DNA from: an uncultured Chloroflexia bacterium
Lineage (GTDB): Bacteria; Chloroflexota; Limnocylindria; Limnocylindrales; CSP1-4
Reading direction: 5' to 3'
DNA: 64,000 nt
NCBI GenBank assembly: GCA_963706095.1
Contig: OY970149.1
Span: 832,173 to 896,172 of the forward strand
Part shown: one piece after another, positions 9,660 to 44,494 of the stretch
How positions within the stretch are numbered: the stretch's first letter is position 1
Layout: every line of letters starts with the position of its first letter
Notes under the pieces: model-generated
What the model was told of the DNA's origin: nothing
The model's input: only the letters and a program-made list of their open reading frames with translations
The model's database searches: none
Position numbers and translations under genes: made by a program

Positions 9660-9702
9660 GCGCCCGCCGCGATACTCCCCTGGGGTATACGCCGATGCTA
9701 CG

Positions 9703-17560: not shown

Positions 17561-18415
17561 TCAGGCGCCTACGCCGAACCAGATGGGCGGTGGCTTCTCG
17601 CAATCGGTGTCATCGCTGCCGACGACGTCGATGGCGCCTCGGTCGGAGTTGATCTCGAGGTCGAGCCAGGCGCTGTTGTTGTCCAGGTTCTGGTTCTTCT
17701 CCTGCCACATGGAGTTGCTGTTGACGGTCGCACACATCCGGTACGTGCCGGTCTCGAGGCCGACGATGTCGATCCACTGGTGGTTGAAGAACGGCTTGTA
17801 GTCGTCGCCGTAGCCCGGCGAGATGCCCATGCGGAACTCCTGGCTGGCGCGCGTTCCACAACCTATGACCGGGAACCCGATCCGGTTGGCCGCGTTGGGC
17901 GGCCGCAGCCCGGCTGGAGCGCGAACGAGGTCGGTCAGGCAGAAGCCGATCTTGCGCAGGCCACGGTCGGCCAGCGCCGCCGGATCCAACGTCTCGCCGG
18001 TGTCCTTCGAGAAGAGCGAGATGGTGATGAACGCGTTGATGTGCCAGTGGTTGTGGCCGTCGCCCGAGTAGAACGCCTCGGCACCGGGCGGCGCGTAGGT
18101 TCGCGACCCGCCGCCACGCATCGAGACGCTCTGAACCAGGTCGCGCATCACGTCACCCTGGCGGTCGCTGCCGCGGACCTCCATCGGGCCGTCGCCCACG
18201 TTCCAGACGATCGTGCCGAAGCGCAGCCGCAGCCGGCCGCCGCCCGATCGCTCGAGGCGGATGCTGTAAATGTCGCCCATCTTGAGATCGGGCAGGAGCT
18301 CGTCAGCGGCGGCTACCGGCGCCGCGCCGATCGTGGAAGCCACGAGCAGCAGCGCCAGGCCCAGCGCGAGCGGCCACGGACGGCGTGGAGAGTTCAGGAC
18401 GGGGCTCACCGGCAA
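17561..18415 (-). CDS. Secreted lysyl-oxidase-like copper amine oxidase (LOX family), paralog 2
   Basis: Signal peptide, ELLPDL, GDGHNHWHI, RKIGFCLTD, GISPGYGDDYKPFFNHQWIDIVGLETGTYRMCATVN. About half of positions are identical to paralog 1 by eye. Confidence 0.7.
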   Translation of the reverse strand: MPVSPVLNSPRRPWPLALGLALLLVASTIGAAPVAAADELLPDLKMGDIYSIRLERSGGGRLRLRFGTIVWNVGDGPMEVRGSDRQGDVMRDLVQSVSMRGGGSRTYAPPGAEAFYSGDGHNHWHINAFITISLFSKDTGETLDPAALADRGLRKIGFCLTDLVRAPAGLRPPNAANRIGFPVIGCGTRASQEFRMGISPGYGDDYKPFFNHQWIDIVGLETGTYRMCATVNSNSMWQEKNQNLDNNSAWLDLEINSDRGAIDVVGSDDTDCEKPPPIWFGVGA

Positions 18416-18419
18416 AAGC

Positions 18420-19538
18420 CTACTCCGGCAGCGGCCGCTCGTCGGGGCCGATGTAGCGCACGTCGGGCCTGATCAGCCGGTTGGCCGAAGCCTGCTCGAG
18501 GATGTGCGCCGTCCAACCGGCGTGGCGCGCGAGGGCAAACGTCGCCGGGAAGAGATCGGGCGTCAGTCCGACACCCTCAGCACGGGCGCTGCGTAGAACT
18601 CGACGTTGGTCTTGAGCGGCCGGTCGGGGTGCTTCTCGGCCAGGACCTTGAGCGCGACGTCCTCGACAGCGATGGCGAGGTCGAGCCAATCGGGCCGGTG
18701 CGCCATCGCATTCCGCGACTTCGCGCAGCGCCGCGGCGCGCGGGTCGTAGGCGCGGTAGACGCGGTGCCCGAAGCCCATCAGCCGCTCGCCTCGGGCGAG
18801 CGTCTCGCGCACCCACTGCTCGGCGCGCTCGACGGAGCCAACCTCGTGGAGCTGCTCGACGACCTCGGACGGCGCGCCGCCGTGGAGCGGGCCCTTGAGC
18901 GCGCCGATGGCGCCACATACGGCCGAGGCAATGTCGCTGCGCGTCGAGGTGATGACGCGCGCTGTGAAGGTCGAGGCGTTGAAGCCGTGCTCCGCGCCGA
19001 CGACGAAATAGGCATCGAGCGCGCGGGCGGTGGCGTCGTCGACACGCTCGCCGTTCAGCTGGTAGAGAAATCCCGGCACGGTGTCGAGCGACGGATCCGG
19101 GTCGACCGGCTCCTGGCCGTTGCGAATGCGAGCGAAGGCGGCGAGCGCCGAGGGCGAGAACGCGGTCAGCGCGCGTGCCTGCTCGACGGTCGGCGGCCAG
19201 CTCAGGTTCTGGGCGGCACCCCATGCGGAGACGGCGGTGCGCAGCGCGTCCATCGGCTTTGAGTCGGTGGGCAGAGCGCGCAGCGCCGCCAACACACCAT
19301 CCGGCACGGGCTCGAGTGGAAGCCGAGCGTCGGGTCGCCACTCGTCGGTCCACAGCAGCTCGGCCACGCTGGCGTAAGAGCCCCTGTGGACCAGATCACG
19401 AATCGAGTAGCCCCGATAGAGGAGCCGACCCTCGGCGCCGTCGATATAGGCCAGCGCCGTCTCGCCCGCGAGGACCCCCTCCAGGCCCGGTGAGTAGGGC
19501 CGATCGTCCACCATCTGTCTCTCCCTGGGGCTTGTCAT
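18420..19538 (-). pseudogene. Citrate synthase (small, CitZ/archaeal-type), internal out-of-frame patch around 18590-18715
   Basis: LEGVLAGETA...YRGYSI.DL, GAEHGFNASTF, LKGPLHGGA, MGFGHRVY. The expected ...WLDLAIAVEDVALKVLAEKHPDRPLKTNVEFYAAPVL is readable only in another frame. The C-terminus GLTPDLFPATFALARHAGWTAHILEQ is back in frame. Confidence 0.8.
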
Positions 19539-27252: not shown

Positions 27253-27900
27253 CTAGGGCGAGCGGCGCTGCTCCGGCTCAGGCACGCTCTCATCCTGTCG
27301 TGCAATTTCATTCCGATTGGAACGGGCGGCACCGCGGTCGAGCACGAGGGCGGTGATGGCGAACCAGGCAAGGCCGAGCAGCAGGCCGCCGATCGCGTCA
27401 GTTGGCCAGTGGACACCGAGCGAGACGCGCGCGAAGCCCATCACCAGGCCCGCGATCAGGCCGCCCATGAGCGCGAGGCGCAGACGCCGGCCAGGCGGCG
27501 CGAGAAGCCATGCCAGGACCGCGATCAGGGCGACGGCGCGGACGACATGGCCGCTCGGGAACGCGAACGAGTCGGGCCCGAAGAAGTGCTCGCTGGCGAC
27601 GGTCTCGGGGCGCGCCCGTTCGACGATCAGCTTCACGCCGAAGGCAGCCAGGTCGGCGGCGAGGGTCAACGCCACGGCGACTCCGAGGACCGCGCCACGC
27701 ACCCGGCCCATGGCCAGTGCAATCAGCCCGACGAGCACCGCCCATACGGCAAGGTCTCCGAGCGTGTTGATGAGCCCGACGAATTCGCGTGCCGGGCCTG
27801 GCGCCAGCTCGGCCGCGGTCACCAGCGCGACCTCCCAGGCCGCAGCGGGCTCGAGCCGCGCCCAGACAGCGAACAGACCGAGTGCCAACAGTGACAGCAC
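27253..27900 (-). CDS. PAP2-family membrane phosphatase
   Basis: C-terminal part of ORF 27253-28446. KLIVERARP, PSGH, SLGVHWPTD motifs and several TMs. The start is uncertain (GTG around 27900). Confidence 0.7.
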   Translation of the reverse strand: MLSLLALGLFAVWARLEPAAAWEVALVTAAELAPGPAREFVGLINTLGDLAVWAVLVGLIALAMGRVRGAVLGVAVALTLAADLAAFGVKLIVERARPETVASEHFFGPDSFAFPSGHVVRAVALIAVLAWLLAPPGRRLRLALMGGLIAGLVMGFARVSLGVHWPTDAIGGLLLGLAWFAITALVLDRGAARSNRNEIARQDESVPEPEQRRSP

Positions 27901-27941
27901 GGCAATGACCGCCAGCGCCCGCTCGGACGCCGGCGTCTGGC

Positions 27942-28883
27942 TCAGACGCCGATCGGGTGCCAGACCGTCTTGATCTCGAGGTACGTCGCGATCCATTCGG
28001 GCCGCTGCGCGCGGCGGTCGTCGAGCCAGTCGAAGCGCTCGTCGGCGTCGCGTGGCGGGCGGGCGACGCGCTTGACGCTGTCGATGGCGGACTCCTCGAC
28101 CTGTGCGCGCATGTCGCGCGGCACGCCCCAGGTGTCGATGGCGTTGACGTCCATGTGCGCCGCCAGGATCGGGTACGAGCTCGCGTCGCAGGCCGGTCAG
28201 GATGTTGATCACGCCGGCCGGAACGTCCGACGTGGCCAGCACCTCGCTCAGGGTCACCGCCGGCAGCGGCCGCGTCTCCGACGCGAGCACGACCACGGCA
28301 TTGCCGCCAACCACGGCCGGTGCCACGCGCGAGACGAGTCCCAGGAGCGAGGAAGTCTCCGGCGCGACGATGCCAACCACGCCGGTCGGCTCGGGGATGC
28401 TGAAGTTGAAGTACGGCGCGCCGACCGGGTTCACGGTGCCCAGCACCTGGGTGATCTTGTCAGCCCAGCCGGCGTACCAGACCCAGCGGTCTATCGCCCG
28501 ATCGACGACGGTGCGATGCGGCCTCTGTCGGATAGCCCCTCGGCCGCGGCGACCTCGTCCACGAATTGCGCGCGGCGTCCTTCCATCAGCTCGGCGACCC
28601 GGTACAGCACCTGGCCGCGGTTCATGGCGGTCTTGCCCGCCCAGCCGGCAGCCGCGCCACGCGCCGTGCGCACCGCGTCGCGCAGGTCCTTGCGCGACGA
28701 GCGGACGGCATTGGCGAGCGGCGCGCCGTCCGGCGCGCGGACGACGTAGCTGCGTCCCGATTCCGAGCGCGGGAACTGGCCACCGACGTACAGCTTGTAC
28801 GTCTTGCGCACGGGTATGCGCGCCGCCGTCGCGGGCTGCGCGGGCTTGACCGGCTGCAGCGCGCGCGACTTATTCGTTGCCAT
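27942..28883 (-). pseudogene. Aldehyde-dehydrogenase-like protein lacking the catalytic domain (about 314 aa); two frame changes near 28515 and 28170
   Basis: MATNKS...KTYKLYVGGQFPRSESGRSY, AIDRWVWYAGWADK, VVGIVAPE, VINILTG, then ...AIDSVKRV goes directly to an ALDH-like C-terminal tail EWIATYLEIKTVWHPIGV. I saw no ELGGK or catalytic Cys segment in any frame. Confidence 0.55.
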
Positions 28884-30796: not shown

Positions 30797-30833
30797 CGCG
30801 GACAGGCTACACCCGTGACGCGACCATTGCTAC

Positions 30834-30849
30834 GTGACCGTTTGGTCAC
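30834..30849. promoter_or_regulatory. Palindrome GTGACCgtttGGTCAC (candidate operator, copy 1)
   Basis: Seen directly in the 38-nt divergent gap between the ALDH start (30796) and the methyltransferase ORF. Same 6-4-6 palindrome plus AT as at 33384 and 38015. Confidence 0.5.
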
Positions 30850-31634
30850 ATAATCGAATGGCATCCGGTGGCGGCACCGTGCGCTGCGCTACGCTTGCGG
30901 GCATGCGCCGCCTGGCCGCTGCCACCGAGCTCCTTGACGGACCACTCGATGCACGTCTGCTCGCCGGCAACCTGCGCGATCTTGCGCGCGTGAACGCGTG
31001 GCTCGGCGGGAACGCGCTGTCCTGGCGAGCCGTAGAACCGCTCCTGGATGAAGGTGACGAGGGAGTGCTGCGGCTTTTGGATGTTGGCACCGGCGGCGCC
31101 GACCTGCCGCGCGACCTGATCCGTCGCGCCACGGCTCATGGTGGGCGGTTGGAAATCGTGGCGACGGACGTGCGGCCCGAGATCGTCCATCTCGCCCTCA
31201 AGACGCGCCCGCTGCCCGACGAGCTGACGATCGAGCTCGCACGGTCAGGCACCATTGATGCCGAGGACGGCGCCTTCGACGTCGCGCATGCGTCGCTGGT
31301 CCTGCACCACCTCGAGCCGGACGCTGCGCGGGCGCTGCTGCGCGAGATGGCTCGAGTGGCGCGCAGCGCGGTGATCGTCAACGACCTCGCGCGCGGCCGG
31401 CTGTGGCTGCTCGGCGCTCGGGCGCTGAGCCTTGTGGCAACACGCAACCTCTACACGCGCAACGACGCGCCCCTGTCCGTGCGCCGCGCCTACTCGATCG
31501 GCCAGCTGACACAGCTGGCCGCCCATGCCGGGCTGCGCCCCGTGGCACGCTACCGGGCCGTGCCGCCTTACCGCTTCGCGCTGGTGTTCAAGCACGATGG
31601 CCCAACACGTGGTCGTGTCAGCCACGACAGCTGA
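30834..31634 (+). CDS. Class I SAM-dependent methyltransferase
   Basis: Motif I LRLLDVGTGGADL, FDVAHASLVLHHLEP, AVIVNDL. The true start may be ATG around 30858 (MASGGG). Confidence 0.7.
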   Translation: MTVWSHNRMASGGGTVRCATLAGMRRLAAATELLDGPLDARLLAGNLRDLARVNAWLGGNALSWRAVEPLLDEGDEGVLRLLDVGTGGADLPRDLIRRATAHGGRLEIVATDVRPEIVHLALKTRPLPDELTIELARSGTIDAEDGAFDVAHASLVLHHLEPDAARALLREMARVARSAVIVNDLARGRLWLLGARALSLVATRNLYTRNDAPLSVRRAYSIGQLTQLAAHAGLRPVARYRAVPPYRFALVFKHDGPTRGRVSHDS

Positions 31635-32832
31635 CGTCGCAATCGTCGGCGGTGGACCCGCCGGCTCTGCGCTTGCCATCCGACTCGCACGCAGCGGCAT
31701 CGCAACGACGCTCATCGAGCGCCGTTCAGCGCCGACGTGGCACGCGTGTGGGGTCTTCTCGTCGCCCTTGACGCGCGGTCACCTCGCCGAACTGGGCATG
31801 TCCGCGACCGAGATTGCGGCGCTCAACCGGCCGATCGCCGCGCTCGACCTGGAAACGACCCGCGGAGTGCGGTGCCGAATCGAATATGAGTCGGGGCCGG
31901 CCTGCGGCTTCGACCGCCTCGCGCTCGAAACGACCCTGCTCGAACGCGCCCGCGCGGCGGGCGCGACGGTCATGACCGGAACAGTGGTTCGCAACGTCGA
32001 GCTATCAACCCACGAAGGCGAGCGCTCACGCCTGCAGCTCTCGTCCGTGGCCGCACACGACGCCGGGGCGTCAGAGCAGCCGAGCACGGTGACCGCCAGG
32101 CTGGTCGTCGGGGCCGATGGTTCGTCATCCGTCGTGGCGCGCGCTGCGGGTGTGTACCGCGTCCATCGGCTGCTGGACCGTTCCGGAATCACCTTTCATC
32201 GCGTCGACTCGGGCGCTCCAGACGACCACGTCCCGATGGCCGGTCGCTTCGTGTTCGACGACGGCTGGTATGTCGGCATCGCGCCCGTTCCGGCCGGCCG
32301 GGTCAACATCGGCATCGTTGTGCGCGCGGTCCGTGATCAACGGCCCGCCGAAACGGCGGAGCACGTGATCAGCTCGATCCCAGGACCAGCCGGTGGCTGG
32401 ATGACCGCGCCGACGCTCGATCGAGTGGCCGTCGCCGGCCGGCTCGAGCATCACGCCGCGCGGGTGGCCGGCCGTACGTGGCTGCTGGTGGGCGACTCAA
32501 TCGGCTTTATCGATCCCCTGACCGGCGAAGGGTTGCTGCGCGCATTCCAGAGCGCGCGGCTCGCAGCGCACTCGATCGAGCAGATGCTGCGCGGCAGCCC
32601 TGCGGCGTTGGAGGATTACGATCGCCACGTCCGCCGCAAGTTTCACGGCAAGAACATGGTCTCCTGGATGATGCAGATGTTCCTCGCCCAGCCCTTGGTC
32701 CTCGACTACGCAATCCGCAGGTTGGCGCGACGTGACGCCCTGCGCTCCGATCTGACCCTGGTGCTGACCGACCAGCAGCCTCCCAGCCGCGTGGTCAACC
32801 CAGCCTTCATTGCGCGATTGCTCGCGCCATGA
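31597..32832 (+). CDS. FAD-dependent oxidoreductase (geranylgeranyl-reductase / aromatic-hydroxylase-like)
   Basis: DVAIVGGGPAGSALAIRLARSG dinucleotide fold, GDSIGFIDPLTGEG motif. The start overlaps the methyltransferase end. Confidence 0.7.
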   Translation: MAQHVVVSATTADVAIVGGGPAGSALAIRLARSGIATTLIERRSAPTWHACGVFSSPLTRGHLAELGMSATEIAALNRPIAALDLETTRGVRCRIEYESGPACGFDRLALETTLLERARAAGATVMTGTVVRNVELSTHEGERSRLQLSSVAAHDAGASEQPSTVTARLVVGADGSSSVVARAAGVYRVHRLLDRSGITFHRVDSGAPDDHVPMAGRFVFDDGWYVGIAPVPAGRVNIGIVVRAVRDQRPAETAEHVISSIPGPAGGWMTAPTLDRVAVAGRLEHHAARVAGRTWLLVGDSIGFIDPLTGEGLLRAFQSARLAAHSIEQMLRGSPAALEDYDRHVRRKFHGKNMVSWMMQMFLAQPLVLDYAIRRLARRDALRSDLTLVLTDQQPPSRVVNPAFIARLLAP

Positions 32833-33278
32833 CTAAGGCCGAATCCCCCGCTGGGCGGGTAACGCGTGTCGCTGCCTATGCGCTCGTCGAGGACGAGACC
32901 AGGCGCGTTCTGCTGGTCCGCATCGCCGCGGGCTACCCGAGCGCGGGCCAGTGGACGCTGCCCGGCGGCGGGCTCGATTTCGGCGAAGATCCCGCCGTCG
33001 GCGCGCTGCGTGAGCTGACCGAGGAAACCGGGCTCGTCGGAGAGATCACGAGACTGGCCTTCGTCGACTCGTTCTCGCGCCCGGGCCTGCCCGAGGAGGG
33101 CGTCGCGGCGTGGCACGCGATACGAATCGTGTATCTCGTCGAGCTGACGGGCGGGTCGCTGCGCGACGAGACCGAGGAGTCGACGGATCGCGCCGACTGG
33201 TTCAGTCCCGCAGAAACAGGCAGCATTGATCTCGTGCCGCTGGCGGTCAAGGCAATCGCCCATCTCCAGGCCGAGTGA
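32829..33278 (+). CDS. Nudix hydrolase
   Basis: Nudix box GGGLDFGEDPAVGALRELTEETGL. ATGA overlap with the upstream stop. Confidence 0.8.
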   Translation: MTKAESPAGRVTRVAAYALVEDETRRVLLVRIAAGYPSAGQWTLPGGGLDFGEDPAVGALRELTEETGLVGEITRLAFVDSFSRPGLPEEGVAAWHAIRIVYLVELTGGSLRDETEESTDRADWFSPAETGSIDLVPLAVKAIAHLQAE

Positions 33279-33767
33279 GTGCACAGCACGATGGGCATAG
33301 ACATCTCTGCCCCACCGCGGGTCGTGTTCGGCCTTGCCCGCGACGTCCGCAACTGGCCGCGTATGCTGCCGCACTATCGATCAGTGACCGTTCGGTCACA
33401 TGACGGCCATGAATTGACCGCCGACATGCGCGCGGTTCGACAGTTCGGTCCCTTGCCGGTCACCGTTTCCTGGCGCAGCCGCACGTGGAGTGAGGACGCC
33501 GAAGAGCACGACCTTCGCCTGCGCTTCGTGCACGTGCGCGGCGCGACGCGCGGGATGGATGTGACCTGGCATATCACGCCGAGCGTCGACGGCTGCCGCG
33601 CGACCATCGAGCACGACTTCGAGCGCCCCCTGCCGCTCGTCGGGACGAGCCTCATCCCGCGCTTGATCGACCGCTTCTTCGTGCGCGCTATCGCCGGCCG
33701 AACGCTGGCGACCTTCAAGGAGCTCGCCGAATCGACAGAGGTCCCGGGGGCGCAGGCAAAACCATGA
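33279..33767 (+). CDS. SRPBCC (polyketide cyclase/dehydrase-like) family protein
   Basis: About 160 aa. IDISAPPRVVFGLARDVRNWPRMLPHY... is the typical START/Bet v1-like cyclase-dehydrase pattern. Confidence 0.6.
   Translation: MHSTMGIDISAPPRVVFGLARDVRNWPRMLPHYRSVTVRSHDGHELTADMRAVRQFGPLPVTVSWRSRTWSEDAEEHDLRLRFVHVRGATRGMDVTWHITPSVDGCRATIEHDFERPLPLVGTSLIPRLIDRFFVRAIAGRTLATFKELAESTEVPGAQAKP
33384..33399. promoter_or_regulatory. Palindrome GTGACCgttcGGTCAC (copy 2, intragenic)
   Basis: Seen directly inside the SRPBCC gene. It is followed by ATGAC exactly as in the copy at 38015. Confidence 0.4.
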
Positions 33768-35029
33768 GCGAAGGTCAACGCGACGTCTGGATCACCGGGC
33801 TTGGCCTGGTCACGCCGGTCGGAATCGGGCTTGACGCCTTCTGGCAGGGGCTGCAGAACGGCAAGTCGCCGGTCAGGACCATCGACCGCTTCGACCCGAC
33901 GCAATTTCGCTCGCAGGTCGCCGCACAGATAGACGACTTCGTCGCGACCGATCACATGGACTCCCGGACGGCACGCCAGACGGACCGGTTCAGCCAACTG
34001 GCGCTGGCCTGCGGAAAGCTCGCCCTGGCCGACGCGGGCCTGAACGTGGGCCAGCGCGGCTCCGCGCGGGCCGACCGGTTCGGCGTCTACATCGGCTCGG
34101 CGCTCGGCGGAATCGCCTACGCCGAGGAACAGCACGAGCGTTACCTCGGGCGCGGCATCAGATCGGTCGCGCCCAACCTGGCCCTGGCGGTCTTCGGCGG
34201 CGCCGCGCCGGCCAACATTGGAATTGCGCTGGGCCTCCACGGACCCGTCCTCTCGACCGCCAACTCGTGCGCGGCCGGCGCCGTGGCCATAGGCGAAGCG
34301 TTCCGCCTCATCCGCTCCGGCGCGGCCGACGCCGCGATCGCCGGCGGTGTCGAGGCGCCGCTCAGCCCACTCGCCTTCGGCGCGTTCGACATAATCCGAG
34401 CCTTGAGCGCCACCCACAACGACCGCCCGTCAGAGGCGTCACGTCCGTTCGATTCTGAGCGCGACGGCTTCGTGATGGGCGAGGGCGCCGGGCTGCTCGT
34501 GCTCGAAGCGGCTGAGGTTGCCCAGCGCCGTGGCGCTCGCGCGTACGCGGAGCTGCGCGGCTACGCGGCCACGAGTGACGCTCATCACATGGTCCAGCCT
34601 CGTCCCGACGGCCGCCAGGCGGCGCGCGCGGCACGTCTCGCCCTGGCAGATGGCCGAATGAAGGCGGCCGATGTCGACTACGTCAACGCCCACGCGTCGG
34701 CGACCCCGCTCGGCGACGCGATCGAGGCGCGCGCGATCGCGCGCGCTCTCGGACCACGTGCCCGCGAGGTCCCTGTGAGCGGCACGAAGGCGTACTACGG
34801 CCATCCACTGGGCGCGTCCGGCGCGATCGAGGCAGCCATTGCCGCACTCGCCATAAGCCGCGGCTGGGCGCCGGGCACGGTCAACCTCGAACGTGTCGAT
34901 GAGGCCGCCGCTGCCGCCTTGCCGGGGATCTCCCGAGAGCCGTTTGTTGGCGCGATCGGCGGCGTGCTCTCGACCTCGTTCGGCTTCGGTGGCCTGAATG
35001 CGGCGCTCGCACTGAGCGCCGTCAGGTGA
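33764..35029 (+). CDS. Beta-ketoacyl synthase, KAS I/II (FabF-like) type
   Basis: DVWITGLGLVTPVG, active-site STANSCAAG, SDAHH and NAHASAT His motifs, GFGGLNA C-terminus. ATGA overlap with SRPBCC. Confidence 0.8.
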   Translation: MSEGQRDVWITGLGLVTPVGIGLDAFWQGLQNGKSPVRTIDRFDPTQFRSQVAAQIDDFVATDHMDSRTARQTDRFSQLALACGKLALADAGLNVGQRGSARADRFGVYIGSALGGIAYAEEQHERYLGRGIRSVAPNLALAVFGGAAPANIGIALGLHGPVLSTANSCAAGAVAIGEAFRLIRSGAADAAIAGGVEAPLSPLAFGAFDIIRALSATHNDRPSEASRPFDSERDGFVMGEGAGLLVLEAAEVAQRRGARAYAELRGYAATSDAHHMVQPRPDGRQAARAARLALADGRMKAADVDYVNAHASATPLGDAIEARAIARALGPRAREVPVSGTKAYYGHPLGASGAIEAAIAALAISRGWAPGTVNLERVDEAAAAALPGISREPFVGAIGGVLSTSFGFGGLNAALALSAVR

Positions 35030-35574
35030 CGCCGACTCGCGACGGGCTGCCCTTCGACGGCCAGGTGGTGCGCCTGCGTGACGTGACCCTCGATGACGCG
35101 GATCTGGTCGACCGCTGGAACGCCGAGCTCGAGCCGGGCAGCTTCAACGACTTCGGGCAACGCGGCCCGATCGCGCGCGAGCCCCTGGTAGCGGGCAAGC
35201 CGCTGCGCAACGAGCACAACGGCTCGCTCATGATCGAACGCATCGCGGACGGAACGCCGGTCGGCACGATCGCCTACCGCAAGGTGATGTTCGGGCCGCC
35301 GCCAGATTCGGACGCGTGGCAGATCGGCATCGACCTGCCACCAGAGGCGCGCGGCCGGGGCTACGGTGGCGAGGCGCAGCGGCTGCTGGCAGACTGGCTC
35401 TTCGCCACGACTCCGGTCAATCGCGTTGAGGCCGCGACCGACATCGACAACGTGCCCGAGCAGCGCGCGCTCGAAAAGGCCGGCTACGTGCGCGAAGGAG
35501 TGCTGCGCGGATCGCAGTTCCGGGCCGGCGCCTACCACGACCTCGTCTACTACTCGAGGTTGCGCAGTGACTGA
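35026..35574 (+). CDS. GNAT family N-acetyltransferase (RimJ/RimL-like)
   Basis: VRLRDVTLDDADLV..W, RGRGYGGEA, NVPEQRALEKAGYVREG. GTGA overlap with the KS stop. Confidence 0.75.
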   Translation: MTPTRDGLPFDGQVVRLRDVTLDDADLVDRWNAELEPGSFNDFGQRGPIAREPLVAGKPLRNEHNGSLMIERIADGTPVGTIAYRKVMFGPPPDSDAWQIGIDLPPEARGRGYGGEAQRLLADWLFATTPVNRVEAATDIDNVPEQRALEKAGYVREGVLRGSQFRAGAYHDLVYYSRLRSD

Positions 35575-35605
35575 GGCCATCCGCAAACACCGACGGGTGG
35601 GGCGG

Positions 35606-36073
35606 ATGAGTGCGATCGGACTGAGCGTTTTGGTGGGGGTCTTCGTGCTGGCGTGTGGCGCGGCTCCGACCGAATCCCAGGCCCCGGTGCCCTTGGCGTC
35701 GGCGACGTCGCCTGAGGACCAGCTGCAGCAGCGAGCGGACGCCGCGGCAGGCGTCCTCACGGCGCGCGACTGGCTCGCGTACGCCCAGCTCGCAAGCTCG
35801 AGCCTTCTCGAGGGATGCCCTGCCGATCGTCTCGCGACGCTTGTTGCGATGGAGCGGCTGTCGCTTCGCTCCCTGCTGGACATCGGCGATGAGGTGGCTT
35901 TGACCGTTCGCGTTGAGGACGTCGAGACCACAGATGTCGATGGCACCGTGACACTGGTCCTGGTAGCCGACGGCGAGTCCCTGGACGGCACGGCGAGCAC
36001 GGATCGCTGGATCACGGATGGCGGCGAATGGCGCCTTGACGACGACAGCTGGCGGGAGGCCTGTTCAGCTTGA
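35606..36073 (+). CDS. Lipoprotein, unknown function
   Basis: MSAIGLSVLVGVFVLAC lipobox (alternative GTG 35567), about 130-aa mature domain. Confidence 0.5.
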   Translation: MSAIGLSVLVGVFVLACGAAPTESQAPVPLASATSPEDQLQQRADAAAGVLTARDWLAYAQLASSSLLEGCPADRLATLVAMERLSLRSLLDIGDEVALTVRVEDVETTDVDGTVTLVLVADGESLDGTASTDRWITDGGEWRLDDDSWREACSA

Positions 36074-36942
36074 GCGCCAGGCGTCGCTCGCCCTTCCTTG
36101 AGGCCACGCTGATCGGATTGCTGCTGGCCGTCGGGCTGCCGTCCGCCGCAATAGCGCAGGGCTCGCTCGAGAACGGCGAGTTCATGCGCCAGGTTGTCAA
36201 CGCGCAAGTTCGCGAGACGAGCGACGATCCGATCGCAGACTACGACGCCAAGATCGCTGCGGTGGAGGGTCTGAGTCCGCACAACGAACAGCAATATCGT
36301 CTTCAGCAGCTGACCTTGATGTCGCTCAACTGGTACCGCGCGAACGAGATCTGCGTGGCCCTCTACAAGTCAGCCGAGAGCATCGCCGACGTCGCGCGCT
36401 GGCTGGCGTGCGTGACGCCCGTGAATGCGGGCATCCTCGTGCTGGCCGGTGAGATTCGCGACCAGCAGATCGAGATGGTGGCGAGCGCTCAGCCGGGTGA
36501 CGCTGGATACGCGCCGCCACAGGGCCGCTTCCAGAGCGGCCTGGACATTGCCAACGGCGATGACTACGCAAAGGTGGTCGAAACGATCCAAACGGTCGAC
36601 GAAGGGTTGGAGTCGGTGACGGATGTCCGCGAGGGGCTGCAGGCGCTTGCAGACGGCGGAGGTCCGCGGCAGCTCGTGGCGAACATGCTCGCCGCCGATG
36701 GCAGCGAGGTTCAGATTGCCGTCGGCGAGGTCGAGCTCGGTGTCAGCGAAGCGGGATTCAGTCTCCAGGCAGACGGCCAGGCCATCGCCGACGGGTTGGT
36801 TGGGCTGGCCGAGTCGTCCGGGCAGCCGCTCGATCAGGTCGAGCTGGAGATCACGATCACGCAGCCAGTCGGTGACGGTGCCGTCGAACTCAGTGCCAGC
36901 GAGATGCTGCAGATCCCCTTGGGGCCGGGATCGCCCGAATAG
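36070..36942 (+). CDS. Secreted hypothetical protein
   Basis: Signal peptide ...LLLAVGLPSAAIAQG. Acidic, helical-looking body. The start overlaps the upstream stop. Confidence 0.45.
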   Translation: MSARRRSPFLEATLIGLLLAVGLPSAAIAQGSLENGEFMRQVVNAQVRETSDDPIADYDAKIAAVEGLSPHNEQQYRLQQLTLMSLNWYRANEICVALYKSAESIADVARWLACVTPVNAGILVLAGEIRDQQIEMVASAQPGDAGYAPPQGRFQSGLDIANGDDYAKVVETIQTVDEGLESVTDVREGLQALADGGGPRQLVANMLAADGSEVQIAVGEVELGVSEAGFSLQADGQAIADGLVGLAESSGQPLDQVELEITITQPVGDGAVELSASEMLQIPLGPGSPE

Positions 36943-38014: not shown

Positions 38015-38030
38015 GTGACCTTGTGGTCAC
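38015..38030. promoter_or_regulatory. Palindrome GTGACCttgtGGTCAC abutting the ArsR-family start codon (copy 3, likely autoregulatory operator)
   Basis: Seen directly. It ends 1 nt before ATG 38031. A TTGACA hexamer lies about 16 nt upstream. Confidence 0.55.
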
Positions 38031-38312
38031 ATGACCCGACAAGACGCAGCCAACTCGCTCGATTCTTTGCTCGGCGCGCTGGCCGAGCCGACTCGAAGGC
38101 GGCTCTTCGAGCGCATCGTCCGCGAGCCCGGGCTGGCGACCTCACAGCTCACCGCCACGACCACCGACATAACACGGTGGGCAGTGATGAAGCACCTGGC
38201 GGTGCTGCGCCAGGCGGGCCTGGTGCAGACGATGGCCACGGGCCGGCTGCGCCGCCACTACGCGGAACGCGCCGCGCTGGAGCCCCTTCGGACGTGGCTC
38301 TCCGAGCGCTGA
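38031..38312 (+). CDS. ArsR/SmtB-family winged-helix transcriptional regulator (no Cys, no obvious metal site)
   Basis: LGALAEPTRRRLFERI....LATSQL......ITRWAVMKHLAVLRQAGLV, the canonical ArsR HTH. The 93-aa sequence contains no cysteine. Confidence 0.75.
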   Translation: MTRQDAANSLDSLLGALAEPTRRRLFERIVREPGLATSQLTATTTDITRWAVMKHLAVLRQAGLVQTMATGRLRRHYAERAALEPLRTWLSER

Positions 38313-40654: not shown

Positions 40655-42866
40655 GTGGCTCGTGCAGACCCGAGCGCTAGACTGAGCCGCCCCATGGCAG
40701 TCACGCGCGAATCAGACAATGAAACCGCCACCGGATCGACGCCGGTGCGCGATCGTATGCCCGCCGTACGGCCCCGCCGCAGGGCGCGCGCCGACATCCC
40801 GTACATCAACCGCGAGCTGTCGTGGCTGGAGTTCAACGATCGCGTGCTCTTCGAGGCGGTCGACGAGCGCAACCCGCTGCTCGAGCGGGTGCGCTTCCTC
40901 TCGATCTTCGCGAGCAACCTCGACGAGTTCTTCCAGGTTCGCGTCGCCGGCCTGAAGCAGCAGGTCGCCGCGGGGCGCTCGTCGCCGACGCCGGACGGCA
41001 TGAGCGCTGCCGAGACGCTCGATGCCATCGCGCACGCGCCTTCTGCCGATGGTCGCGCGCCACTCGGAGACGTTCGCGATCATCCGCGCCGAGCTGGCCG
41101 AGGAGGAGATCCGCATCGTCGGCTACGAGCGAGCGGCCGGAGCGCCATGTCGAGCTGCGTGAGCGCTTCTTCGACGAGATCTTCCCCGTGCTGACGCCGC
41201 TCGCCGTCGACCCCGGACATCCCTTCCCGTACATCAGCGACCTTTCGCTCTCGCTCGCGGTGACGCGTGCGCGACCCCGAGAGCGGCGAGCGACTGTTCG
41301 CGCGGATCAAGGTGCCGCCCATCCTGCCGCGGCTGATGGAAGTCGCGCCGCAGACGTACGTGCTGCTCGAGCAGGTCATCGCCGCCAACCTCGACGCGCT
41401 CTTCCCGGGCATGGAGGTCATCGAGCACCACCTCTTCCGAGTCACGCGCAACGCCGACCTCTCGATCGAGGAGGAGGAGGCGCCCGACCTGCTGATGGCG
41501 ATCGAGGAGGAGCTGCGCAAGCGGCGCTTCGGCAAGGTCGTCCGGCTCGAGATCGAGCGCTCGATGCCCCACCCGACGCGGCAGCTGCTGATGCGCGGCC
41601 TGGGCATCGAGCCGGCTGACGTCTACGAGATCGCGGGCATGCTCGATCTCGACGGCCCTCAACGCAATCGCCGATCTCGACGTGCCCGAGCTGCTTCATC
41701 CCGTGCCTGCAGCCGGTCACCCCGCCGCGACTGCAGGCACCCGATCCCGACGAAGAGGCCGACATCTTCGCGGCTATCCGTGCCGGCGACCTTCTGATCC
41801 ATCACCCGTACGAGTCCTTCGCGAGCATCTGTCCAGCGCTTCATCGAGCAGGCCGCCGACGATCCTGACGTGCTGACGATCAAGCAGACGCTGTACCGCA
41901 CCAGCGGCGATTCGCCCATCGTTCGAGCGCTCATCCGCGCCGCCGAGTCGGGCAAGCAGGTGGTCGTCCTGGTCGAGATCAAGGCGCGCTTCGACGAGCA
42001 GGCCAACATCGTCTGGGCACGCGCACTGGAGAAGGCCGGCGCCCACGTCACCTACGGGTTGGTCGGGCTGAAGACGCACTCGAAGGTCGCCCTGGTAGTC
42101 CGGCGCGAGGGCCGTGGCCTGCGTCGCTACGTGCACATCGGAACCGGCAACTACAACCCGCGGACAGCGCGCAGTACGTCGACCTGGGCCTGCTGACGAC
42201 CGACATGGAGCTTGGCGCCGACGTGACCGAGCTCTTCAACCTGCTGACCGGCCACTCGCGCCAGAAGCGCTACCGGCGGCTGCTCGTTGCCCCGACGACG
42301 CTGCGCATCGGGCTTGAGCGAGATGATCGACCGAGAGCGCCAGCGCCAGATCGAGCACGGCGACGGTCGCATCGTCATCAAGTGCAACGCCATCGTCGAC
42401 CCGCAGCTGATCCGGGCGCTGTACGAGGCGGGTGCGGCAGGCGTGCAGATCGACCTGATCGTGCGCGGCATGTGCTCGCTCCGGCCGGGCGTGCCCGGGC
42501 TGTCGCGAGACGATCCGCGTGCGCTCGGTCGTCGGCCGGTTCCTCGAGCACTCGCGCATCTTCGTCTTCGGCCGCGACGATCGCGAGCAGTTCTTCATCG
42601 GCTCGGCCGACTTCATGGAGCGCAACCTCGACCGTCGCGTCGAGGCCATCGCACCCGTGCTCGAGGCCGATGCAAGGGCGCGGCTGCGGCGAACCATCGA
42701 GATCATGCTCGAGGACGATCGCCGAGCGTGGCAACTTGCCGCGGACGACCGATGGACGCGTGTCGAGGACACGATCGAGGAGCGCCGTGGCATCGACACC
42801 TTCGAGGCCGTGATGCAGGAGGCACAAGCCCAGGCTCAGGCCCCGGCGACGCTCGCCGTACCGTGA
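40655..42866 (+). pseudogene. ppk1: Polyphosphate kinase 1; about 9 frame changes as assembled
   Basis: [102 protein letters not shown] and [10 protein letters not shown] are spread over fragments in frames 2>0>1>2>0>1>2>1>2>0. Confidence 0.85.
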
Positions 42867-44494
42867 CCGATCGCCGGTCGCGTCGCACGCCCGCGGATGA
42901 GCGTGAGCTCGAGCTCAAGTATTCGGTCAACGACGAGCCCGGCGTCCGCGCCCTGTTGGACGGGGAGCGGCTGGCCGGGTTCGAGTGCGGGCCATGGCGC
43001 ACGGTCGAGGTAGAAGACCGCTATCTGGACACGAGCGATCGCGCCCTTGCGGCGACCGGCTACGGCGCCCGCCTGCGTGGCGTGGGCGGGCGCAGCGTGG
43101 TCACGGTAAAGAAGGAGATCGGTGCGGCGCCGCGAACGCGCAGCGTGCGTCCGAGTCGTGCCCTGAGCGATCGCATGGAGCTCGAGGCGCCCGCTGGCCG
43201 CGGGCTTGATCCGCGCCGCTGGCCCGAGAGCGCAGCACGGTCCCTCATCGAGGCGGCATCGCGCGGCCAGCCGCTGCGCACCCTCTTCGAGATCAACCAG
43301 CGGCGCGAAGAGCGCGACCTGCTCCAGGATGGCGAGGTGGTCGCCCGGCTGTCGCTCGACTCGGCCACAGTGCGCCGCTTCGGCCGCGCGAGGGGCAGCT
43401 TCACGACGCTCGAGATCGAGGCCGCGCGCGAGCTTGCCGATGACCGGCGCGTCGTGCTCGATCAGCTGGCGACGGTGTTCGACGATGTCGCCGAGCTGCG
43501 GCCCGAGCCGCGCTCGAAGATGCAGCTGGCGGCGCAGGTCATCGCCCGCGGCACGGAGACCAAACGTGCGGCGCGTCCGCCTCGCCAGCCGGGCGTCGTC
43601 CGTGATGATCCGCTCAGCGAAGCCGGGCGCAAGATCCTGCGCCTGCACATGCTGCGCATGCTCGCCGCCGAGCCCGGCGTGCGTGCCGGCCGTGACCCAG
43701 AGCACGTCCACAAGATGCGCGTTGCCACGCGGCGCATGCGCGCCGCGTGGCGCGTGTTCGATGGCGCGTACAGGCCTCGTTTCGCGCGGCGCTACGTCGA
43801 CGAGCTGCGCACCGTGGCCGCCGCGCTCGGCGGCGTGCGCGATCAGGACGTGCAGCTCGAGCGGCTGAATGCGTTTCGGACTGGTGAGGACTCCCCGACC
43901 GGTGCTGGGCTGGACCCGCTCGCCGCCGAGTGGCAGCGCCGGCGCAACGTGGCGCGGGGGACCTTGATCGACCTTCTCGACTCGGAGCTGTATGACGGCT
44001 TCACGACCGACTACCTGGTCTTCGTCGAGACACCCGGTGCAGGTGCCAATGGCAACGAGCGCGTCGCCGACGTTGCCGGGGGCCGGATCTGGCGCGCGTA
44101 CGAGCGGCTGCGCGCGCATGACGTGACGCTGGCCTGGGCCGACACCGCGGCCCTGCACGAGCTGCGCATCGACGGCAAGCGCTTCCGCTACGCGCTCGAA
44201 TTCTTCAAAGAGGTGCTCGACGAGGGCGCGGACAGCGTCATCGCCGACGTGACGCGGCTGCAGGACCACCTGGGCAACCTCAACGACGCGCACATCAGCG
44301 CCGATCTCACACGCACGTGGCTGCTCGAAGCCGCGGCTGGGCTGACAACCGAGCAGCGCGACGCGGTGGGCGCCTACCTGCACGCCAACGAGCAGGACGT
44401 AGCGCGGCTGACGCGCTCGTTCGGTCCGCTCTGGCGGGCCCTCACCGGGCGGCCATTTCGACGGCGCCTCGGATCCGTCGTCTCGTCGGTCTGA
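42863..44494 (+). CDS. CYTH (triphosphate tunnel metalloenzyme) - CHAD domain protein
   Basis: The GTG overlaps the ppk1 stop (GTGA). ExExK motif [12 protein letters not shown] region [17 protein letters not shown] ... [17 protein letters not shown]. An uninterrupted 543 codons. Confidence 0.75.

Follow-up and report, generated by a model that had tools for sequence, protein, structure and literature searches.

Gene content and organization of the locus

We examined a 64,000-nucleotide stretch of a Limnocylindria (Chloroflexota) genome, here called the window, in which six genes lie head to tail on the forward strand (Table 1). All six open reading frames of the initial annotation are present at the positions given there, and Pfam supports its six domain assignments: Methyltransf_25/11 for the methyltransferase (MT; E = 7e-10), FAD_binding_3 for the FAD enzyme (E = 6e-24), NUDIX for the Nudix protein (E = 7e-20), Polyketide_cyc/cyc2 for the SRPBCC protein (E = 1e-14), ketoacyl-synt N and C domains for the ketosynthase (KS; E = 1e-48 and 1e-31, respectively), and Acetyltransf_3 for the GNAT protein (E = 6e-14). 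As had been described, the cyclase/dehydrase-like SRPBCC gene directly precedes that of the KS.

Table 1. Features of the six-gene block (positions within the window).
Feature	Position	Strand	Basis
Promoter-like site, TTGCTA-16 nt-CATAAT	30827..30854	+	One found vs 0.4 expected
SAM-dependent methyltransferase, PRK06202-like	30903..31634	+	Pfam, NCBIfam, family, locus context
FAD-dependent oxidoreductase, PHBH / geranylgeranyl-reductase / halogenase superfamily	31597..32832	+	Pfam, NCBIfam, PDB, motifs
Nudix hydrolase, Nudix box intact, accessory	32829..33278	+	Pfam
SRPBCC protein, type II PKS aromatase/cyclase (ARO/CYC) branch	33279..33767	+	Pfam, PDB profile, AlphaFold2, Foldseek
FabF-derived beta-ketoacyl synthase, "cassette KS" subfamily	33764..35029	+	Pfam, NCBIfam, alignment
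GNAT acetyltransferase, Acetyltransf_3, RimJ/RimL-like, accessory	35026..35574	+	Pfam, GTGA overlap

The reported overlaps of stop and start codons were confirmed (ATGA at 32829 and 33764, GTGA at 35026), and TGA and GTG abut at the Nudix-SRPBCC junction (33276-33281). In the protein collection's own gene call, the SRPBCC protein starts at 33291 (158 aa). The FAD gene must begin at ATG 31597, since its GxGxxG motif comes immediately past the MT stop; this start gives a 38-nt overlap with the MT gene. For the MT, ATG 30903 is most likely the start, not GTG 30834 (ATG 30858 is a further possibility), since orthologues align from residue 1 of the ATG 30903 product and the promoter-like site lies upstream. 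An inverted repeat, TACGTGACC-gttt-GGTCACATA (30831-30852), overlaps this site and is a candidate operator; about 16 of 21 close relatives within Limnocylindria have GTGAC(C/T)-N4-5-GGTCAC-like repeats 5' of the MT gene, at the same aligned position. We found no terminator-like site within the six-gene block. Given this and the stops and starts that overlap or abut, the block is best explained as a single regulated transcription unit around a conserved four-gene biosynthetic cassette.

A four-gene core is conserved across several phyla

The operon had been regarded as an orphan. On the contrary, the unit is found in at least ~900 bacterial species (species-level genomes) from several phyla, most of them uncultured. 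The loci that we compared (298, from many phyla, with taxon labels as deposited with the MAGs) show that conservation extends to MT, FAD, SRPBCC, and KS, and not to the six-gene set. In 223 of 226 informative loci the KS gene lies directly 3' of the SRPBCC gene, and 175 of 195 have MT and FAD genes within 4.5 kb, an arrangement that far exceeds chance. Carriers include Chloroflexota, Gemmatimonadota, Armatimonadota, Eremiobacterota, Rubrobacteraceae, and CSP1-3-like "Firmicutes" MAGs. The order of the genes varies: in Gemmatimonadales it is FAD, flavin reductase, MT, SRPBCC, KS; one locus (L263) has SRPBCC-KS-MT; and in one Longimicrobium MAG the MT-FAD and SRPBCC-KS pairs are split over two contigs (L162 and L310).

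The Nudix and GNAT genes are confined to Limnocylindria subgroups. Of 82 Limnocylindria loci, 37 have a Nudix gene at the same position and 15, the closest relatives only, have a GNAT gene. Neither gene was found in ~150 loci of other groups, and the only Nudix gene outside the initial 82 loci is in a Limnocylindria-like locus (L148). Both genes are best explained as additions to the cassette by the lineage of the window. In the literature searched we found no description of the cassette, which probably makes tailored lipids, phenolic or quinone in nature, by an undescribed route.

Two alternative partners of the MT-FAD pair

The MT matches PRK06202 at 145 bits, short of the 243-bit cutoff. 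It shows the hallmark motif R-N/H-D-A/G-P-L-S-V-R-R-A-Y of its family, which is large (1654 50%-identity clusters at E<=1e-10). In nearly all of 80 loci, the FAD gene comes next after the MT gene. The GxGxxG, DG, and GD motifs are all present throughout the FAD family, and the enzyme is probably a ring monooxygenase. In Gemmatimonadales cassettes, a flavin reductase gene (PF01613) adjoins the FAD gene, which we count in favor of the phenolic-lipid pathway proposed below. On the other hand, the FAD protein scores best in NCBIfam against the geranylgeranyl reductase superfamily (128 bits, short of the 158.8 cutoff), and its best PDB match is digeranylgeranylglycerophospholipid reductase. Judged by these similarities, it could be a C=C reductase, a point against ring hydroxylation.

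Across the 298 loci, the partner of the MT-FAD pair is of two kinds that never share a locus: a type III polyketide synthase (T3PKS; 57 loci) or an SRPBCC protein followed by a KS (234 loci). No T3PKS was found within the 6-10 kb flanks of the 234 SRPBCC-KS loci, and an adjacent T3PKS is present in 57 of the 64 MT-FAD loci without an SRPBCC gene. In these 57 loci the order is T3PKS-MT-FAD, and both orders known from hid-type and Planctomycete operons (MT-FAD-T3PKS and T3PKS-MT-FAD) are seen among the compared loci. The T3PKSs of these partner clusters are nearest to the long-chain-primed Pks11, Pks18, and CylI.

The initial annotation had likened the MT-FAD pair to the tailoring enzymes of srs/agq-type T3PKS clusters. 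Homology to T3PKS-operon enzymes is borne out, but the nearest known relatives are of the hid type and in Planctomycete MT-oxidoreductase-T3PKS operons. The window MT is 34.7% identical to the MT of the Paludisphaera borealis T3PKS operon (E = 1e-21), and the FAD enzyme is 27.6% identical to its oxidoreductase (E = 1e-11). Protein homology was measured on this operon and the 57 T3PKS-MT-FAD loci, while hidABC (hierridin) is likened by gene arrangement: hidABC and the Planctomycete operons share with the window an MT gene directly followed by an FAD-oxidoreductase gene (Costa et al., 2019, as cited in PMC6836626 and PMC8086630; PMC10896814). Unlike them, the window has an ARO/CYC-like SRPBCC protein and a FabF-derived KS instead of a T3PKS, with the Nudix and GNAT genes added in its lineage. 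Operons of this type have been described and in part characterised, and the link to them favors the pathway proposed below: the T3PKSs of the Planctomycete operons yield alkylresorcinols (PMC10896814), and methylation of an alkylresorcinol by HidA in vitro is described in PMC10896814 and PMC6836626. In a neighbor-joining tree, the FAD proteins of cassette loci form one split (56% bootstrap, rising to 85% when MT-FAD-only loci of Longimicrobiaceae are included). This split suggests that the tailoring pair co-evolved with the cassette, which we count in favor of the proposed pathway.

The ketosynthase and the SRPBCC protein

The reported Cys-His-His triad of the KS is intact (Cys169, His275, and His310) and is accompanied by Lys342. 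We aligned 158 unique cassette KS sequences with four FabFs. All 162 sequences retain the Cys, the second His, and the Lys; 159 retain the first His and 160 the gate Phe. Housekeeping FabF (TIGR03150) is the top-scoring family and resembles the window KS in fold, length, and catalytic residues, but the KS scores 444 bits on this model, below the equivalog cutoff, compared with 642-673 bits for true FabFs. Cassette KSs overall score 110-230 bits under true FabFs, and most of those outside Limnocylindria exceed the cutoff of the NCBI fabF equivalog. Their identity to FabFs is 38-52%, compared with 54-59% between FabFs of different phyla. Substitutions G107A, I108L, P135L, M137V, I138F, M141A, and A162S are found in 152-158 of the 158 cassette KSs, and the FabF pocket segment SPFF(V/I)PMMI.NM is replaced by xPxLAL(A/S)VF(G/C)GA; the A162 that is changed to Ser precedes the catalytic Cys. 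Nearest to FabF, yet set apart by low score and shared pocket substitutions, the KS is by its sequence a FabF derivative of a distinct subfamily, the cassette KS. Within Limnocylindria, KS identity is 68-82%, versus 38-63% for the partner proteins. With this conservation and the fabF cutoff passed elsewhere, the KS could have a housekeeping or dual role, a point against the phenolic-lipid pathway.

Type II PKSs likewise combine a discrete KS of the KAS I/II fold, with Cys-His-His, and a small SRPBCC ARO/CYC-like protein. In contrast to them, the cassette has no chain-length factor or dedicated ACP, and the window KS resembles FabF more closely than KS-alpha (444 vs 224 bits for PRK07103; 335 vs 269 bits in PDB matches). 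The absence of an ACP, noted initially for the operon, extends to the window and 82 Limnocylindria loci, where we found no ACP-like sequence. We found no second KS in the window or the flanks of 240 loci, and no chain-length factor, acyltransferase, or thioesterase was found linked to the cassette, which counts against the phenolic-lipid pathway.

Profile and predicted fold both place the SRPBCC protein nearest to type II PKS aromatase/cyclases. Its family profile matches BexL (1.5e-15), WhiE-ORFVI (2e-11), TcmN (4e-8), and ZhuI (3e-7) in the PDB, and the COQ10/RatA-like 1t17 at E = 0.028 only. Foldseek top ranks for the AlphaFold2 model (pLDDT 89.9) are WhiE-ORFVI, TcmN, TTHA0849, and ZhuI (TM ~0.7). 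Counterparts of W28, Y35, W65, M91, and W95 are invariant in the family. However, R69, the essential arginine of TcmN, has no conserved counterpart in the cassette SRPBCC family, which counts against a cyclase.

Proposed pathway and alternatives

We propose that the KS and the cyclase replace a T3PKS to make a hydroxylated, methylated alkyl-phenolic lipid, and we put the probability of this at about one half. The KS would take a fatty acyl thioester, most simply an acyl-ACP of fatty acid synthesis, and lengthen it by decarboxylative condensation with malonyl-ACP, leaving the beta-keto groups unprocessed and drawing on the housekeeping ACP and FabD. The SRPBCC protein would fold, cyclise, or aromatise the beta-keto chain and may aid its release, yielding a core that is either alkyl-phenolic (resorcinol-like) or a pyrone. 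The flavin enzyme would hydroxylate the ring with reduced flavin and the MT would methylate the hydroxylated product, giving a hierridin-like methoxy-alkylphenol or alkyl-(hydro)quinone lipid. If this is true, a KS plus cyclase do the job of the T3PKS in the homologous T3PKS-MT-FAD clusters. Since no ACP or chain-length factor is linked, the KS would need to act iteratively, as a homodimer, on the ACP of the fatty acid synthase. No characterised precedent is known to us for a homodimeric KS that makes an aromatic product in this way.

Alternatively, the KS may be an ordinary, possibly the sole, FabF that happens to lie downstream of a functionally separate MT, FAD, and SRPBCC module. Its best matches are FabFs (in the PDB, those of Synechocystis, Bacillus, and Thermus), its conservation resembles that of the flanking ALDH and DeoC genes, KSs of other phyla pass the fabF cutoff, and no further KS or fab gene was seen in the window or flanks. 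We nevertheless find this quite improbable. Adjacency to the SRPBCC gene holds in several phyla and persists despite gene-order shuffling; in the split Longimicrobium cassette the KS accompanies the SRPBCC protein, not fab genes, and cassette KS genes were never found beside acpP or fab genes. Moreover, ~95-100% of the 158 cassette KSs carry 15-17 substitutions at sites invariant in the four true FabFs; these cluster in the acyl-pocket segment, and identity to FabFs is lower than among FabFs of different phyla.

The KS and SRPBCC protein may instead produce and carry a special starter, such as an acyl chain elongated further, for a T3PKS encoded outside the locus, or make a non-aromatic beta-keto product that is then modified by MT and FAD enzyme. 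The ACP-KS-T3PKS-MT-FAD cluster of Sphingobium yanoikuyae pKN1 indicates that a KS can accompany a T3PKS rather than replace it, and the missing R69 equivalent, the frequent lipid binding of SRPBCC proteins (lower Foldseek ranks), and a MAG labelled Limnocylindria with T3PKS-MT-FAD (L089) point the same way. We regard this as unlikely: the Sphingobium KS is of another family, 34-38% identical to cassette KS and FabF alike, and has its own ACP; the 6-10 kb flanks of the SRPBCC-KS loci hold no T3PKS; the MT-FAD pairs of cassette loci are a clade of their own; and the SRPBCC protein is specifically nearest to ARO/CYCs. Thermomicrobiales, Sphaerobacterales, and Rubrobacteraceae, labels borne by some cassette-carrying MAGs, are known for mid-chain methyl-branched fatty acids. 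The cassette could modify fatty acyl chains rather than make a phenolic lipid, the MT adding a mid-chain methyl group and the flavoenzyme, with its geranylgeranyl reductase matches, performing the reduction, as in the two-step tuberculostearic acid pathway, on a substrate provided by the KS and a lipid-binding SRPBCC protein. This is very improbable, as Pfam does not assign the MT to the cyclopropane/mycolic acid synthase type, the same MT and FAD families pair with T3PKSs, including those of Planctomycetes that produce alkylresorcinols (PMC10896814), the SRPBCC protein resembles aromatase/cyclases, and the cassette is common in Gemmatimonadales too.

For the phenolic-lipid pathway, a possible physiological analogy is offered by the mycobacterial and Streptomyces polyketide quinone (PkQ) and srs-type alkylresorcinol/alkylquinone clusters, which, unlike the cassette, use a T3PKS. 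Their methyltransferases, such as SrsB, are of the ICMT type. In these systems, as described in the abstract of PMC9927152, a quinone-like membrane lipid is made from a long-chain phenolic core by adding hydroxyl and methyl groups.

A conserved four-gene core within a coupled block

The initial annotation described six head-to-tail genes as a single translationally coupled unit, and the ORFs, their junctions and their domain assignments (checked against Pfam) are all borne out. They encode a SAM methyltransferase (MT; Methyltransf_25/11), an FAD-dependent oxidoreductase (FAD; FAD_binding_3), a Nudix protein (NUDIX), an SRPBCC protein (Polyketide_cyc/cyc2), a ketosynthase (KS; ketoacyl-synt N and C) and a GNAT protein (Acetyltransf_3). 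The six form one coupled gene block in a window of about 68% GC. No terminator-like site occurs inside the block, and Rfam and tRNA scans of its region were empty. The starts proposed earlier for MT and FAD needed adjustment. The revised MT start is the most likely one because orthologues align from that residue and because of the position of the sole promoter-like site; the FAD start creates a 38 nt overlap with the MT gene.

Relatives of the KS at 75-85% identity number in the hundreds in metagenomes, where the named ones are Candidatus Limnocylindrales/Limnocylindria or Chloroflexota; a lookup of the exact KS protein among recorded proteins returned nothing. Scanning one genome per species, we found a close KS relative in 343 genomes, the best 80 of which (68-82% KS identity) are nearly all labelled Limnocylindria, Chloroflexota or Chloroflexia. 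Each of the 82 Limnocylindria loci has SRPBCC and KS side by side. MT was found in 72 of them, as was FAD, and every locus lacking MT is cut short by a contig end. Nudix occurs in 37/82 loci and GNAT in 15/82, the closest relatives. What is conserved of the proposed six-gene unit is thus the MT-FAD-SRPBCC-KS core (hereafter the cassette), whereas Nudix and GNAT are accessory genes added in particular lineages. Identity to the window proteins across the 82 loci is 68-82% for KS, 43-63% for SRPBCC, 38-60% for MT and 39-58% for FAD. The ALDH, DeoC and Ppx neighborhood is likewise syntenic among these loci, so synteny within the class is by itself little proof. Nearly all Limnocylindria seem to have the cassette and to conserve it strongly. 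For the Nudix protein, a reading as CoA pyrophosphatase was set aside, as inspection by eye found no upstream NuCoA motif.

An inverted repeat, GTGACC-N4-GGTCAC, overlaps the promoter-like site. Since about 16 of 21 close relatives have a comparable repeat where their sequences align with it, the candidate operator suggested earlier is a conserved element of the window's subclade. A small ArsR-type regulator gene is a candidate binder of this repeat; the gene is also kept near the cassette in the relatives L001 and L002. Two further ORFs follow GNAT on the same strand. Neither contains a Pfam domain, and tblastn of the second against the 82 Limnocylindria loci found no homologue. In L002, DeoC lies directly after the GNAT gene.

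Coordinates of the features discussed, in the window and in loci from other genomes
Feature	Sequence	Position	Strand	Remarks
Six-gene block	Window	30834-35574	+	MT, FAD, Nudix, SRPBCC, KS, GNAT
Promoter-like site	Window	30827-30854		
MT start	Window	30903	+	ATG; most likely start
FAD start	Window	31597	+	ATG
Junction	Window	32829	+	ATGA
Junction	Window	33276	+	TGA-GTG, abutting
Junction	Window	33764	+	ATGA
Junction	Window	35026	+	GTGA
ORF after GNAT	Window	35605-36073	+	Lipoprotein-like signal (…VLAC…); start 31 nt past GNAT stop
Second ORF after GNAT	Window	36070-36942	+	
ArsR-type regulator	Window	38019-38312	+	HTH_20
Broken polyphosphate kinase gene	Window	40793-44494	+	Frame change near 42490-42505
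Second aldehyde dehydrogenase-like gene	Window	27945-28844 and 27253-28446	-	Three pieces, frames -3, -2, -3
303-aa ORF	Window	17561-18472	-	Lysyl oxidase-like, weak match
SRPBCC and two KS-fold genes	L262 (Ktedonobacterales MAG)	3296-6400		
ACP, KS, T3PKS, MT, FAD	L320 (Sphingobium yanoikuyae plasmid pKN1)	267729-272048		KS of 389 aa
FAD, flavin reductase, MT, SRPBCC, KS	L192, L214, L225, L230, L236 (Gemmatimonadales MAGs)	About 5600-9700 each		Flavin reductase ~160 aa
PaaK-like ligase	L145	11753-13078	-	AMP-binding + AMP-binding_C_2
PaaK-like ligase	L151	6112-7419	-	AMP-binding + AMP-binding_C_2

The MT-FAD pair is shared with type III PKS operons

The MT belongs to a family of 1654 clusters (50% identity; E ≤ 1e-10) with the hallmark motif RHDGPLSVRRAY. 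The extensions of its longer representatives contain no Pfam domains, and that of P0151 reaches into the beginning of the FAD gene. When non-Limnocylindria members were used as queries in a species-genome scan, the best 80 loci came from many phyla and nearly all had an FAD homologue directly after MT. These loci split into two classes. In the first, the ~345-aa ORF immediately upstream is a type III PKS (T3PKS) with Chal_sti_synt_N/C and FAE1_CUT1_RppA domains, whose closest solved relatives are Pks11 of M. tuberculosis, then 4b0n (an unnamed T3PKS), Pks18 and, further down, CylI. Its members are labelled Rokubacteria/Methylomirabilota, Acidobacteriota, Verrucomicrobiia, Actinomycetota and Binatia. 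The second class has no T3PKS; the FAD gene is followed by SRPBCC and then by a KS 50-58% identical to that of the window.

Annotated replicons of cultured bacteria carry the T3PKS arrangement: MT, NAD(P)/FAD oxidoreductase and T3PKS in Paludisphaera borealis; T3PKS, MT and FAD monooxygenase in Methylobacterium oryzae; and a T3PKS-like gene, MT, FAD oxidoreductase and glycosyltransferase in Deinococcus sp. AJ005. Tricistronic MT-oxidoreductase-T3PKS operons have been described in Planctomycetes, where such T3PKSs yield alkylresorcinols (PMC10896814). In the cyanobacterial hierridin cluster hidABC, HidA accepts an alkylresorcinol as methylation substrate in vitro, and hydroxylation has been proposed as the role of HidB (PMC6836626, PMC8086630). 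The P. borealis operon is tricistronic like those of Planctomycetes and has the gene order of hidABC. The window MT is 34.7% identical to its MT over 225 aa (E 1e-21) and the window FAD 27.6% identical to its oxidoreductase over 337 aa (E 1e-11); identity to the MTs of T3PKS-MT-FAD loci is 32-43%. The resemblance of the pair to T3PKS-cluster tailoring enzymes, remarked on from the sequence, is therefore one of homology to the P. borealis proteins, and kinship with cyanobacterial HidA and HidB would follow by way of the Planctomycete operon rather than from direct comparison. Both operon types have a HidA-like MT followed directly by a HidB-like FAD oxidoreductase, but the T3PKS core gene is absent from the window block, and tblastn with three T3PKS queries found none in the 64-kb window or in 234 SRPBCC-KS loci.

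On the Sphingobium plasmid (L320), the MT shares the hallmark motif of the window's MT family, and the KS belongs to a family distinct from both FabF and the cassette KS (34-38% identity to each). A MAG labelled Candidatus Limnocylindria (SMAG_U14396; L089) has the T3PKS-MT-FAD version instead of SRPBCC-KS. In a Chloroflexota MAG contig of only 2 kb (L143), a divergent T3PKS (34% identity) lies upstream of an MT that groups with cassette MTs; this locus may be an intermediate between the two versions.

The FAD protein carries the motifs expected in the PHBH/GGR/halogenase superfamily (GxGxxG, DG and GD) and scores below cutoff on every NCBIfam model. Its best match is the geranylgeranyl (GG)-reductase superfamily model TIGR02032 (128 bits vs 158.8), followed by QhpG Trp dihydroxylase (76 bits), GoxB and UbiH-type hydroxylases; QhpG, GoxB, UbiH-type monooxygenases and halogenases score comparably to the GG reductase family. 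Its PDB neighbors are GG reductase and FADH2-dependent halogenases. A halogenase reading was discarded after informal inspection by eye found no WxWxIP motif. In Gemmatimonadales, a flavin reductase is encoded beside the FAD gene, which suggests that the enzyme uses externally reduced flavin. This fits a two-component monooxygenase and is also compatible with a reductase.

Type III PKS and SRPBCC-KS alternate across phyla

Two scans with an SRPBCC motif found 554 and >586 relatives, respectively. Because the Limnocylindrales form lacks a match to this motif, most of the relatives add to the 343 Limnocylindria genomes, which puts the cassette in at least some 900 of 185,579 species genomes. The operon is thus no orphan, as it had been called. 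Labels include Gemmatimonadales, Longimicrobium, Thermomicrobiales, Sphaerobacterales, Nitrolancea and Ktedonobacterales, and further Rubrobacteraceae, Chthonomonadales/Armatimonadota, Eremiobacterota/Vulcanimicrobiota, Candidatus Fervidifonticultor, high-GC "Firmicutes" and ANGP1, all taken from the MAGs as deposited. The best 80 loci of each SRPBCC scan are all MAGs, and the matches listed in protein searches and genome scans are MAGs and metagenome proteins only, with no cultured host among them. No homologue of the cassette SRPBCC was found in the plasmid collection.

In a set of 298 unique loci, sampled as the 80 best per scan rather than as a census, SRPBCC is followed directly by KS in 223/226 informative loci, and 175/195 cases have MT as well as FAD within a distance of 4.5 kb. 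A T3PKS is present in none of 234 SRPBCC loci and in 57/64 MT loci lacking SRPBCC. T3PKS and SRPBCC-KS therefore strictly alternate as partners of MT-FAD.

Gene order varies among lineages. Gemmatimonadales have FAD, flavin reductase (PF01613), MT, SRPBCC and KS, and another locus (L263) has SRPBCC, KS and MT. The halves of the cassette are unlinked in Longimicrobium; in the SMAG_U3378 MAG, MT-FAD is on contig 23 (L162) and SRPBCC-KS on contig 17 (L310). The same split is seen in other Longimicrobiaceae (L146, L149, L153, L156, L279 and L305-L307), where MT-FAD sits between amidohydrolase-like and cyclase/MBL-like genes (translations judged by eye) and SRPBCC-KS at a separate locus. In neighbor-joining trees of modest support, FADs of cassette loci form a single split with 56% bootstrap, rising to 85% when the Longimicrobiaceae MT-FAD-only loci are included, and the MT tree recovers the same grouping plus L143 (46%).

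Apart from the Gemmatimonadales flavin reductase, no flanking gene is consistently conserved across these loci. MFS, NAGPA, DUF92, ccm and PaaK-like ligase genes occur sporadically, including a DUF92 membrane protein gene upstream of the cassette in L214 and L236, and CcmB/CcmC-like genes downstream on the opposite strand in L236. In L145 and L151, whose taxon labels differ, the cassette KS is immediately followed by a convergent gene for a PaaK-like AMP-binding ligase. The ligase might activate a starter, or its position might be coincidental.

An atypical FabF-like ketosynthase and an ARO/CYC-related SRPBCC protein

The window KS scores 444.5 bits on TIGR03150, below the cutoff of 493.75, compared with 642-673 bits for three structurally characterized FabFs and 484-534 bits for cassette KS of other phyla. 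It reaches 224 bits on the polyketide KS model PRK07103 and, in the PDB, 335-317 bits against FabFs vs 269 against the actinorhodin KS. Judged by these scores, it is FabF-like rather than KS-alpha-like, yet an atypical FabF. FabFs of different phyla are mutually 54-59% identical, and cassette KS are 38-52% identical to them. Relative to four reference FabFs, 15-17 positions invariant in those four are replaced almost universally in 158 unique cassette KS, including (FabF numbering) G107A in 158, I138F in 157, A162S in 156, I108L in 155, M137V in 154, P135L and M141A in 152 each, and S332G in 144; F132 is retained in none. The segment SPFF(V/I)PMMI.NM becomes xPxLAL(A/S)VF(G/C)GA. In E. coli FabF structures, the acyl pocket is lined by I108 and residues 133-138 of the partner subunit. 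Because the replaced positions coincide with this lining, the acyl pocket of cassette KS appears to be remodelled. The Cys-His-His triad noted at the outset is intact (C169, H275, H310), as are K342 and the gating F408. In the alignment of the 158 cassette KS and four FabFs, the catalytic residues and gating Phe are kept in 159-162 of 162 sequences.

Type II PKSs use a KS-alpha/CLF heterodimer encoded by two adjacent KS-fold genes and have a dedicated ACP, whereas the cassette has one KS-fold gene. This holds in 174 loci with the exception of L262, in which two KS-fold genes, sharing 43% and 34% identity with the query KS, come after an SRPBCC of the cassette family. L262, on the fringe of that family, may encode an ordinary type II PKS with KS-alpha and CLF. 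No second KS or fab gene was found in the window or in the flanks of relatives' loci, nor any acpP or fab gene in the 64-kb window and the relatives' 6-10 kb flanks. The reported lack of an ACP in the operon agrees with tblastn of E. coli ACP, which gave nothing below E 0.1 in the window or the 82 Limnocylindria loci, and with the lack of any PP-binding gene in Pfam-annotated neighborhoods. The only matches, weak ones of E ≥ 0.1 in the coding sequence of Nudix, were judged spurious.

A profile of 19 SRPBCC family members matched BexL (E 1.5e-15), WhiE-ORFVI (2e-11), TTHA0849 (3e-9), TcmN ARO/CYC (4e-8), ZhuI (3e-7) and StfQ (4e-5) in the PDB, with the COQ10/RatA-like 1t17 at only 0.028. The AlphaFold2 model (pLDDT 89.9) has WhiE-ORFVI, TcmN, TTHA0849 and ZhuI as first fold matches (TM about 0.7). 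The TcmN-type pocket comprises W28, Y35, W65, R69, W95 and Q110. With the alignment to WhiE as a bridge, W28, Y35, W65, M91 and W95 have invariant counterparts, and those of R82 and Q110 are invariant His (H85 and H112 in window numbering). R69 is catalytically essential in TcmN, whereas its counterpart in the cassette family varies among Thr, Gln, Met and Val. By profile and predicted fold, the protein is a relative of ARO/CYC enzymes, and these changes point to a possibly different catalytic arrangement.

Proposed pathway and alternatives

We propose, with a probability of roughly 0.5, that KS and SRPBCC form the core, and FAD and MT the tailoring steps, of a pathway to an alkyl-phenolic or quinone lipid. 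This reading starts from the four-gene core, the homology of MT and FAD to the T3PKS tailoring pair, the intact but remodelled FabF-type KS and the ARO/CYC-like SRPBCC. The KS would lengthen a fatty acyl thioester by malonyl units on the housekeeping ACP without reduction, and SRPBCC would cyclize or aromatize the chain and aid release of an alkyl-phenolic core, which the flavoenzyme would hydroxylate and MT would then methylate. This route would end in a methoxy-alkylphenol resembling hierridin or in an alkylquinone lipid.

In a rather unlikely alternative, KS and SRPBCC would provide or carry the starter of a T3PKS whose gene lies elsewhere, or their product would be non-aromatic. The Sphingobium ACP-KS-T3PKS-MT-FAD locus illustrates that a KS can accompany a T3PKS, but that KS is of a different family and brings its own ACP. 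That the KS is simply the cell's ordinary FabF would agree with its conservation and FabF-like scores; the linkage of KS to SRPBCC across phyla, the signature substitutions and the split cassette of Longimicrobium make this quite improbable. We consider it very improbable that the cassette is an acyl-chain methylation or reduction system: the GGR-like matches of the FAD protein point that way, but the same MT-FAD families partner with T3PKS, and SRPBCC resembles ARO/CYC enzymes.

More tentatively, and at somewhat less than even odds, a minimal PKS without CLF or its own ACP, in which a homodimeric FabF-derived KS and a TcmN/WhiE-like cyclase borrow the ACP of fatty acid synthesis, may have displaced T3PKS at the centre of an alkyl-phenol/alkyl-quinone lipid pathway and spread through roughly a thousand mostly uncultured soil and freshwater species (Limnocylindria, Thermomicrobiales, Gemmatimonadota, Eremiobacterota, Armatimonadota). 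Given its near-universal conservation in Limnocylindria, the product there may be less a sporadic secondary metabolite than a core lipid with a membrane or redox function.

Operons of the MT-FAD-T3PKS type are already known. We found no paper describing the MT-FAD-SRPBCC-KS version, and a genomics paper on Limnocylindria makes no mention of lipids or polyketides. If the proposed pathway is correct, two unrelated condensing systems, T3PKS and a type II-like KS with a cyclase, feed one tailoring pair, which would clearly exemplify non-orthologous displacement of one PKS class by another; to our knowledge, no simpler type II-like system has been characterized. Cassette hosts include abundant, uncultured soil lineages, and the product of the proposed pathway might be a widespread membrane phenolic or quinone lipid with possible roles in respiration or stress tolerance, or as a biomarker. 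Databases annotate the cassette KS as "3-oxoacyl-ACP synthase II" and SRPBCC as "RatA toxin" or "aromatase". We expect the cassette to escape standard genome mining, because the lone FabF-like KS is labelled as fatty acid synthesis and the cyclase as "RatA toxin".

Other features of the window

None of the six genes studied contains a frameshift; apparent ones are confined to other genes of the window. The polyphosphate kinase gene is broken, its Pfam middle, C1 and C2 domains being spread over three consecutive ORFs, of which the last is fused to CYTH-CHAD; the frame change was located by alignment to the intact 727-aa protein of L002. The break reflects either a pseudogene or an assembly indel error. 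A second aldehyde dehydrogenase-like gene is in pieces relative to a 340-aa protein of L002; their frames imply two frameshifts, and one of the ORFs continues into the adjoining PAP2 phosphatase gene. Elsewhere on the minus strand, an ORF weakly resembles the Pfam lysyl oxidase catalytic domain (E 2e-6, 28 bits).
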